Source: a virus (lineage: Duplodnaviria > Heunggongvirae > Uroviricota > Caudoviricetes). From it: 7,099 nt of DNA. The DNA is taken from the IMG/VR virus record IMGVR_UViG_2675903425_000008; one strand, 5' to 3'. Below are positions 3,001 to 6,000 of the stretch, piece after piece; within the stretch, counting starts at the first letter, position 1, and each line of letters opens with the position of its first letter. The position numbers are program-made.

Positions 3001-6000
3001 TGCCACCGGCGCAGAGTGCCGATGCGGCCCTGCTGCCCGCGTTGCGTCTGGGGAATGCCCGGGCAGATGATCTGGTGCGCAATAACGGAATAGCGGCCAA
3101 TGCGGTGGCACTGCATAAGGATCACATTGTCGGGCATATGTTTCTTATCAGCTACCGTCCGAACTGGCGCTGGCTGGGGATGCGGGAGACCGCAGCAAAA
3201 AGCTTTGTCGATGAGGTGGAGGCGGCCTGGTCGGAATACGCCGAAGGGATGTCTGGCGAGATCGACGTGGAAGGAAAACGCACGTTCACGGAATTTATCC
3301 GTGAAGGTGTGGGCGTTCATGCGTTTAACGGCGAAATCTTTGTGCAGCCGGTCTGGGATACGGAAACCACGCAGTTATTCCGTACGCGTTTTAAAGCCGT
3401 GAGTCCGAAACGGGTGGACACGCCAGGACACGGTATGGGGAACCGTTTTCTGCGGGCCGGGGTGGAGGTCGATCGATATGGCCGTGCCGTTGCGTACCAT
3501 ATCTGTGAGGATGATTTTCCTCGCTCCGGGAGTGGACGATGGGAACGGATCCCGCGTGAACTTCCCACCGGGCGTCCGGCCATGCTGCATATTTTCGAGC
3601 CGGTGGAGGACGGGCAGACCCGTGGGGCCAACCAGTTTTACAGCGTCATGGAACGGCTGAAGATGCTCGATTCCCTGCAGGCAACACAGCTTCAGTCGGC
3701 CATTGTGAAAGCCATGTATGCAGCGACGATTGAAAGTGACCTTGATACCGAAAAGGCCTTTGAATATATCGCCGGTGCGCCGCAGGGGCAGAAGGATAAT
3801 CCGCTTATTAATATTCTGGAGAAGTTCTCCAGCTGGTATGACACGAATAACGTGACGCTGGGTGGTGTCAAAATTCCGCACCTTTTCCCCGGGGATGATC
3901 TGAAACTACAGACTGCGCAGGATTCAGACAATGGATTTTCGGCGCTTGAACAGGCGCTGCTGCGGTATATCGCCGCCGGTCTTGGCGTTTCCTACGAACA
4001 GTTGTCCCGTGATTACTCGAAGGTCAGTTATTCAAGTGCCAGGGCCTCTGCCAATGAGTCGTGGCGCTATTTTATGGGGCGGCGAAAATTTATTGCGGCC
4101 CGGCTGGCCACGCAGATGTTTTCCTACTGGCTGGAAGAGGCACTTCTTCGGGGGATTATCCGTCCGCCACGGGCGCGTTTTGATTTTTATCAGGCGCGAT
4201 CAGCCTGGTCACGGGCAGAGTGGATTGGTGCCGGAAGAATGGCCATTGACGGGCTCAAGGAGGTTCAGGAATCGGTGATGCGCATTGAGGCCGGACTGAG
4301 CACGTATGAGAAAGAGCCGGCGCTGATGGGCGAGGATTATCAGGACATTTTCCGCCAGCAGGTCAGGGAATCTGCAGAGCGGCAAAAAGCCGGACTCTCA
4401 CGTCCGGTGTGGATAGCGCAGGCGTATCAGCAGCAGATAGCGGAGAGTCGCAGGCCGGAAGAGGAGACAACACCCCGTGAGACGTAATCTTTCACACATT
4501 ATTGCCGCAGCATTCAATGAACCGCTGCTTCTGGAGCCCGCCTATGCGCGGGTTTTCTTTTGCGCGCTCGGGCGCGAGATGGGGGCAGCAAGTCTTTCGG
4601 TACCACAGCAGCAGGTACAGCTTGATGCTCCCGGAATGCTGGCTGAAACGGACGAGTACATGGCCGGAGGTAAACGACCGGCCCGTGTTTACCGGGTGGT
4701 GAACGGTATTGCTGTACTGCCGGTGACCGGCACGCTGGTGCACCGGCTGGGGGGTATGCGGCCATTTTCCGGAATGACAGGCTATGACGGCATTGTCGCC
4801 TGTCTTCAGCAGGCAATGGCGGATAGCCAGGTGCGGGGCGTACTGCTGGACATTGACAGTCCGGGCGGGCAGGCCGCCGGCGCGTTTGACTGCGCTGACA
4901 TGATTTACCGCCTCCGTCAGCAGAAGCCGGTCTGGGCACTGTGCAATGACACGGCCTGTTCTGCAGCCATGCTGCTGGCGTCGGCCTGCTCCCGACGGCT
5001 GGTTACCCAGACATCCCGTATCGGCTCCATTGGCGTGATGATGAGCCATGTCAGCTATGCCGGTCATCTGGCGCAGGCCGGTGTGGATATCACGCTGATT
5101 TACTCAGGGGCGCACAAGGTGGATGGCAATCAGTTTGAAGCCTTACCGGCAGAGGTTCGCCAGAACATGCAGCAGCGCATTGATGCGGCGCGCCGGATGT
5201 TTGCCGAAAAAGTGGCCATGTTTACCGGTCTGTCTGTTGATGCCGTCACGGGAACAGAGGCCGCCGTTTTTGAAGGTCAGTCCGGCATTGATGCCGGGCT
5301 GGCGGATGAATTAGTCAATGCGTCGGATGCCATCAGTGTGATGGCCACGGCGCTGAACAGTAATGTCAGAGGAGGCACTATGCCGCAATTAACTGCAACG
5401 GAAGCCGCCGCGCAGGAGAACCAGCGAGTGATGGGGATCCTGACATGCCAGGAAGCGAAAGGACGTGAACAGCTTGCCACGATGCTGGCAGGACAACAGG
5501 GCATGAGCGTTGAACAGGCCCGGGCGATTCTGGCCGCGGCGGCACCGCAGCAGCCGGTGGCATCCACGCAGAGTGAAGCCGATCGCATTATGGCGTGTGA
5601 AGAAGCGAACGGTCGTGAACAACTGGCGGCAACGCTGGCGGCGATGCCGGAGATGACGGTGGAAAAAGCCCGCCCGATCCTGGCTGCTTCACCGCAGGCG
5701 GATGCCGGACCCTCACTCCGTGATCAGATCATGGCACTGGATGAGGCAAAAGGGGCTGAGGCGCAGGCTGAACAGCTGGCTGCCTGCCCGGGAATGACTG
5801 TGGAGAGCGCCCGGGCTGTGCTGGCTGCGGGATCAGGTAAGGCAGAACCGGTCTCTGCATCCACAACCGCCCTGTTTGAACGCATCATGGCGAACCATTC
5901 ACCGGCTGCGGTACAGGGTGGCGTGCCACAGACGTCAGCAGACGGTGATGCGGACGTGAAAATGCTCATGGCCATGCCATGAAGTCAGTGCTGACCATCA

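Follow-up and report, generated by a model that had tools for sequence, protein, structure and literature searches.

Three tandem copies of one module of ~41-45 amino acids are present in the scaffold part of the gene 5/C homologue that is encoded in a 7,099-nucleotide stretch of Caudoviricetes DNA (IMG/VR record IMGVR_UViG_2675903425_000008; 'the window' below stands for this whole stretch). Sequence comparison identifies the triplication as the known Tri boxes, annotated in the 1990s in coliphage 21 gene 5/6, which is homologous to C/Nu3 of lambda. In the window the boxes belong both to a 501-amino acid (aa) fusion of prohead protease and scaffold (4477..5982, + strand) and to the predicted scaffolding protein that is nested within it. 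We consider it rather probable that they are reiterated interaction modules, which would draw scaffold and protease into the prohead. A reading that had been made earlier from the DNA alone (the sequence-only reading) had pointed out the repeat; its interpretation was partly supported, and the feature is correct but ordinary and not new.

The three boxes and their counterparts in phage 21

A profile made from the copies matches exactly three domains of the 501-aa protein, at residues 314-358 (box 1; 5416..5550), 367-407 (box 2; 5575..5697) and 414-454 (box 3; 5716..5838, all on the + strand). Box 2 has 61% amino acid identity to box 1, and box 3 is the most diverged of the three. When the copies were aligned with one another the local BLOSUM62 scores amounted to 101, 83 and 97, against means of ~25-27 (standard deviation ~5) for shuffled sequences. 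These scores correspond to z-values of 15.5, 11.0 and 14.8, and in each case the observed score was reached by none of 1000 composition-preserving shuffles. The three tandem, diverged copies that the sequence-only reading had placed in the C/Nu3 scaffold region (5404-5925, in frame with the open reading frame (ORF) 4477-5982) were thus recovered, and repeat detection likewise yielded three significant internal repeats in the protein. The peptides that had been listed as copies 1, 2 and 3 correspond to residues 317-358 (nt 5425-5550), 370-407 (nt 5584-5697) and 417-454 (nt 5725-5838), respectively.

The scaffold region is rich in alanine (20-27%), which could raise the thought of a chance likeness within low-complexity sequence, or else of an artefact of assembly. 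The shuffle scores refute the former. The latter is refuted by the occurrence of the same three boxes in sequenced phages and in independent genomes that number in the thousands, and by the divergence of the copies, which is too large for misassembly, so that the probability of either is negligible. In fact, the copies are only 57-68% identical in nucleotides, their longest common exact run is 8-9 nt, and different codons are used at 11-13 of the 19-23 residues that are identical between copies. Given this low nucleotide identity and the differing codons for identical residues, the repeat must be old and conserved at the level of the protein. A cause at the level of the DNA, such as slippage or a regulatory repeat, was excluded on basis of the lack of any exact run longer than 9 nt and the mostly synonymous nature of the differences.

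The gene is 98.6% identical in nucleotides to gene 5 of coliphage 21 over 1506 of 1506 nt (M81255.1, OL657228.1), and the segment 1479-6674 of the window as a whole is 97.6% identical to that phage. In GenBank, the head operon of phage 21 (M81255) has three repeat_region features within the nested gene 6, named 'Tri1 box', 'Tri box' and 'Tri3 box', each of which is marked 'function unknown'. On the window these map to 5447-5550, 5587-5697 and 5728-5841, and so coincide with the three copies of the sequence-only reading. The likeness extends to the gene order (terminase, gene 3/W, portal, gene 5, nested gene 6, shp/D and gene 7/E) and to the internal ribosome-binding site and ATG, with the repeat features at the same positions. 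The differences are a few amino-acid changes in the window protein and the fact that the window copy resides in a defective prophage of the O157:H7 type, in which the major capsid gene is truncated. Record OL657228.1 also annotates a 'CII binding site' (pattern ttgynnnnnnttgy) at 2409-2422 and at 2643-2656, equivalent to around 5385-5398 and 5619-5632 of the window on the minus strand; these two annotations within the scaffold region are probably chance matches to the pattern.

Public databases list the exact 501-aa protein under the name 'capsid assembly protein of prophage CP-933R', from at least 1000 contigs. Many O157:H7 genomes have the gene at 100% identity, and a match to it is present in 2032 of 5426 complete E. 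coli genomes. A triplication that was annotated about three decades ago and that occurs in roughly a third of the complete E. coli genomes carries little weight as a discovery. The Tri boxes of phage 21 were reportedly described by Smith and Feiss (Gene 126:1-7, 1993), and the full-text literature searches returned no paper that describes the Tri boxes or assigns a function to the Nu3 box. What gives the observation its relevance is that none of the curated domain models (Pfam, NCBIfam) covers the conserved Nu3 box and that its function is still undefined experimentally.

The identification of the gene product as an S49 prohead protease-scaffold fusion was based on the ORF, on Pfam and PHROG matches and on the identity to phage 21 and lambda. 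A Peptidase_S49 domain (PF01343) covers residues 146-293 (4912..5355, + strand), with an E-value of 2.8e-35 and 122 bits against a gathering cut-off of 24.9. The dyad S162 and K214 within this domain is invariant in the alignment with lambda gpC, and S162 is the residue that we take to be equivalent to the catalytic Ser166 of lambda. PHROG 53 ('head maturation protease') aligns with the protein end to end (E = 9.7e-228), and the overall identity to lambda gpC is 59%. The scaffold part, which is acidic (net charge -10), is matched by none of the NCBIfam models.

Lambda, other relatives and the nested scaffold

Lambda gpC/gpNu3 shares with the window protein the S49 domain with its conserved Ser and Lys, the same nested-gene logic and, beyond the last box, a similar tail motif. 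The single box of lambda (RIMGILNCEEAHGREEQARVLAETPGMTVKTARRILAAAPQ) is 63% identical to box 1 and has the same three-residue 'MGI' insertion, and as judged from these sequence features box 1 is its orthologue. The two systems differ in three respects. Lambda has one box and the window has three; a 36-aa Ser/Thr/acidic linker upstream of the lambda box has no equivalent here; and the annotated Nu3 start is at C codon 239, whereas the predicted start here is equivalent to codon 309 of lambda C.

To establish how common the box is, the profile of the three copies was searched against 1.84 billion representative proteins (E <= 0.001), which yielded 458 clusters. Among the best 150 of these 458 clusters, a single box was found in 135, two boxes in 11 and three in 4. 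The count of units across relatives that the sequence-only reading had called for thus came out in its favor, with a single box in lambda and in the large majority of the best 150 clusters. The one-box PHROG profiles 8399 ('head scaffolding protein'), 8940 and 17040 each match the 501-aa protein at least three times. A census with tblastn, which at the E-value used undercounts box copies and served for the taxonomic spread only, recovered the box in phages of Escherichia, Proteus, Providencia, Vibrio, Aeromonas, Xylella, Xanthomonas and Burkholderia. On basis of these counts, profiles and census one box is the usual state, and three are the mark of a subclade. No other part of the Nu3-type scaffolds is as well conserved as the box.

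Within the subclade, three relatives (P0123, P0124 and P0121) are 46-60% identical to the window protein in the scaffold region and align with it box for box. Box 1 of the distant three-box relatives has 64-78% identity to box 1 of the window, and these first boxes cluster together and with the box of lambda. Read from the sequences, the triplication is older than the split of lineages that are now ~50-60% identical. Together with the nucleotide divergence and the differing codons, the three-box relatives bear out the earlier view that the duplication is old and not the product of recent slippage. Two boxes are present in some distant Nu3-like proteins as well (P0163, P0248 and P0265), which are ~31-43% identical where alignable, although in P0265 the match to the window protein spans 29 residues only. 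The two boxes of P0163 are closer to each other than to the boxes of the window, and the sequences suggest that the two-box state of P0163/P0248 arose by an independent duplication of the same module.

A peculiarity of the E. coli phage 21 lineage is found in box 3, which has GAE (5746-5754) and in which EAQAEQ replaces residues of the ELA type. In the box family GRE is near-invariant at the former position, including box 3 of the more distant three-box relatives. Judged by sequence, the two changes may reflect relaxed constraint on, or divergence of, the third box.

The C-terminal tail that follows box 3 (residues 455-501; 5839..5979, + strand) includes a conserved F-E/D-x-F/I-M-A motif at 5869-5904. 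The sequence-only reading had taken this segment (ALFERIMANHSP, residues 465-476) as a partial fourth copy, an idea that did not hold. Its comparison with copies 1-3 gave z-values of -1.5 to 0.7 in the shuffle test, and the box profile scored it at -1.0 bits. Moreover, of the 120 protein clusters that are closest (clustered at 90% identity; counts of clusters are not counts of genomes), 97 have FEHFMA as the motif, so that FERIMA, with the string 'ERIMA', is a minority state. A fourth repeat unit was rejected as demonstrable, since shuffling, profile and conservation all fail to tell it from chance. The motif itself is conserved in the relatives and weakly so in lambda (LDRLMQ), and it was modelled as a single helix with low confidence. 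Its position, at about one repeat period past the last box both here and in lambda, is noted in this respect, and a vestigial box origin is possible. For lambda, the sequence-only reading had named one full and one degenerate copy. The alignment confirms the full copy, which is followed by the short motif LDRLMQGAP.

The scaffold is predicted to be produced separately as well. An AGGAGG ribosome-binding site at 5370..5375 (+ strand), with its counterpart at the equivalent place in M81255 and OL657228, precedes an in-frame ATG at 5380, and at the level of sequence this Shine-Dalgarno/ATG combination constitutes an internal start. The resulting gene 6/Nu3-like scaffolding protein (5380..5982, + strand) would comprise 200 aa. 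It is annotated in both phage 21 records, and a homologue of 195 aa that was called independently (P0124) uses the same start. The annotated Nu3 of lambda is nearly identical in length (201 aa), and only the fusion is longer, with 501 aa against 439 aa for gpC, a difference of 62 aa. Within the free scaffold the two extra boxes occupy the place of the protease-overlap segment and the 36-aa linker of lambda. The codon that is annotated as the Nu3 start in lambda (C codon 239; L003 833) is ATT (Ile) in the window, at 5197. The start of the phage 21 type (AGGAGG followed by the ATG at 5380) is kept in lambda as CAGGAGGgcgaATG, at gpC codon 309 (L003 1043). From these sequences lambda and phage 21 seem to use different internal starts for nested products of nearly equal size, which is a small oddity, and lambda might make a shorter product from the start at codon 309 as well.

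One way to account for this oddity would be a requirement for a nested scaffold of ~200 aa, such that the start in phage 21 moved downstream and two boxes restored the length. It would agree with the near-equality of the nested products in spite of the 62-aa difference between the fusions, and with the loss of the lambda ATG and the absence of the lambda linker. The natural alleles that are described below argue against it, as these specify predicted nested scaffolds that range from ~150 to 250 aa in intact-looking operons, and so does the presence of a downstream Shine-Dalgarno sequence and ATG in lambda, which renders the true starts uncertain in both phages. Such length compensation is therefore quite improbable. 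We attach still less probability to the suggestion of the sequence-only reading that a longer modular scaffold alters the size or geometry of the prohead. Scaffold variants are known to redirect capsid size, as in the case of P4 Sid and SaPI1 CpmB, and the fusion is indeed longer than gpC. Nevertheless, the predicted free scaffold is not, so that the 'longer scaffold' applies to the fusion only, and nothing points to a change in prohead size. The major capsid proteins are homologous and equal in length (342 aa in phage 21 and 341 aa in lambda), the genomes of phage 21 (42.9 kb) and lambda (48.5 kb) fall in the same size class, and the number of boxes varies from two to four within one otherwise constant operon.

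Variation in box number and the role of the boxes

Within the 120 closest clusters the number of boxes is variable. The commonest allele specifies 482 aa and lacks the C-terminal half of box 2, due to a 19-aa deletion between two LAA strings; it was found in 64 of the 120 clusters, and one representative (P0038; L005-L007) occurs on at least 1000 contigs. Alleles of 451/452 aa (P0085; L009, L010; P0090) have two boxes, and around 25 of the 120 clusters have two boxes only. The two-box forms resulted either from an in-register box 1/box 2 hybrid at an 8-nt microhomology (GAAGCGAA) or from a clean loss of box 2. Conversely, a 551-aa allele (P0002; L008) has four boxes by way of a box 3/box 2 hybrid duplication, and in a single case (P0001, 657 aa) a larger internal duplication was observed. 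In-register deletion or duplication at microhomologies of 5-8 nt gave rise to the variant alleles. Those of 482, 451 and 551 aa sit among full-length genes for portal, D, E (342 aa), FI, FII, Z, U, V, G and T. Given the occurrence of 2, 2.5, 3 and 4 boxes in intact-looking operons, copy number appears to be tolerant. Among phages the picture is more uniform, as each of the 19 records with 80% or more of the gene covered has the full three-box length of ~1500 nt.

This variation is at the heart of the main rival explanation, in which box 1 does the work and boxes 2 and 3 are largely redundant relics, tolerated duplicates that act at most as a spacer. The 64 clusters in which box 2 is halved, with P0038 in a complete-looking head and tail operon, the two-box clusters and the GAE of box 3 in place of the family-invariant GRE are all in line with such redundancy. 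It is harder to reconcile with the box-for-box retention of three boxes in the relatives that are 46-60% identical, with the conservation of the boxes as opposed to that of the linkers, and with the uniform three-box form of the phage records, and on balance we regard it as unlikely. A wider generalization, put forward tentatively as we would grant it less than even credence, is that box number is a naturally variable and tolerated parameter of lambdoid scaffolds and that the box, as inferred from sequence, is a widespread three-helix, helix-hairpin-helix (HhH)-like assembly domain (at least 458 clusters at 50% identity). The literature searched contained no description of natural variation in box number, where it should be said that the phage 21 Tri-box paper was outside that search.

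The boxes were modelled with AlphaFold2. With the 200-aa scaffold as a single sequence, every box came out as a long helix and a short helix that are separated by a loop at the P-G/E-M-T/S motif, with a mean pLDDT of 64. When an alignment of 11 sequences was supplied, three short helices per box were obtained with a pLDDT of ~75-84 (mean over the model 67.6), and the linkers and the tail had values from below 50 to ~63. Within each of the two models all three boxes have the same helical pattern, and the boxes are probably small three-helix units on flexible linkers, arranged as beads on a string. The sequence-only reading had proposed to see by structure prediction whether each module forms the same helical hairpin: the sameness across the boxes is borne out by the models, with two helices per box in the one model and three in the other.

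The segment L-x-x-x-P-G-M-T-x-x-x-A-x-x-h-L resembles the HhH signature, and box 3 alone matches Pfam HHH (PF00633) with an E-value of 0.0016 and 18.6 bits, which could be read as a sign that the boxes bind nucleic acid. The match is below the gathering threshold of 24, on which account membership of the family was rejected, and there is no HHH match for box 1, for box 2 or for the consensus of the family. Furthermore, the negative charge of the scaffold region does not favor such binding, and in lambda the scaffold is removed before the DNA enters. A role of the boxes as HhH-like nucleic-acid-binding modules is thus very doubtful, about as much so as an effect on head size.

A role of the boxes in assembly is supported by the location of the gene between those for portal and for decoration and capsid proteins, and by the contacts of lambda Nu3 with E, C, B and itself (PMC3224144). 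By virtue of the nested arrangement the boxes are common to scaffold and protease, which have the same C-terminus. The boxes could accordingly act as the modules by which both proteins are recruited into the assembling prohead, through contacts with the major capsid protein and/or with other scaffold and portal subunits. Three boxes would provide several equivalent binding sites per chain, and thus multivalency or redundancy, and would do so without lengthening the scaffold, as the predicted nested product equals that of lambda. After assembly, the S49 protease would degrade the scaffold as in lambda.

The same logic is known from other systems. In P2 (gpO), in the herpesviruses (UL26/UL26.5) and in P22 (the C-terminal helix-turn-helix of the scaffold), a small C-terminal helical module tethers the scaffold and the protease inside the procapsid, and the protease carries the C-terminus of the scaffold. 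The likeness concerns the logic of the tethering module, and we know of no tandem reiteration of that module in these three systems. A further set for comparison is formed by arrays of three-helix binding domains, like those in staphylococcal protein A, the GA albumin-binding modules and the Ebh/Embp repeats.

Several points weigh against the boxes being interaction modules. The link between the boxes and particular partners in prohead recruitment is one that we infer. The sequence of the 200-aa scaffold had no match in the PDB at E <= 1, a Foldseek search gave nothing at E <= 0.001, and neither the sequence nor the fold showed a likeness to the P22-type coat-binding helix-turn-helix or to any solved scaffolding protein. 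The models themselves are moderate, with a mean pLDDT of 64-68 and a pTM of ~0.3, and they disagree on the number of helices per box. The prevalence of the allele with half of box 2 indicates that this box is perhaps dispensable, two-box alleles are found in intact-looking operons, and box 3 does without the family-wide GRE. Finally, the coat-binding element could be the conserved extreme C-terminal tail instead. Should the variant prophages be viable, they would constitute a ready allelic series for the effect of scaffold valency on T=7 assembly, and the natural alleles with 2, 2.5 and 4 boxes, set beside the three-box form, offer a simple genetic handle on the role of the box in prohead assembly.

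The head operon and the state of the prophage

The window represents the left end of a lambdoid head operon. A Nu1-like ORF for the small terminase (241-564), which is partly covered by a run of 50 N (504-553), is followed by the large terminase gene (end at 2708), the W/gene 3 homologue (2692-2898) and the portal gene (2895-4487). Downstream of the protease-scaffold gene lie the D/shp homologue (6019-6366) and an E-like major capsid gene that starts at 6424. The latter is a truncated ORF (6424-6690) that breaks off after codon 88, and the major tail gene is joined to it. The match to phage 21 and to an intact relative ends at 6674, 251 nt into the major capsid gene, and resumes at 6665-7099 in the V-like major tail gene, from codon 2 onwards, with an overlap of ~10 nt at the junction. 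Around 2.5 kb is missing at this point, comprising the 3' part of E as well as FI, FII, Z and U, which leaves the V homologue without its ATG. As most of E and all of FI, FII, Z and U are deleted, the prophage is unable to make its own heads. On the evidence of its sequence it is a CP-933R-type prophage of E. coli O157:H7 with a defect in head assembly, in which the triplicated scaffold gene rides along as an intact passenger.

An identical E/V junction is annotated in O157:H7 strain PV15-279. In the otherwise 99.8% identical prophage of that strain (NZ_AP018488.1, 4093-9011) an IS3-family element adjoins the terminase gene. The terminase and portal genes are annotated there as frameshifted, and both ORFs are intact in the window.

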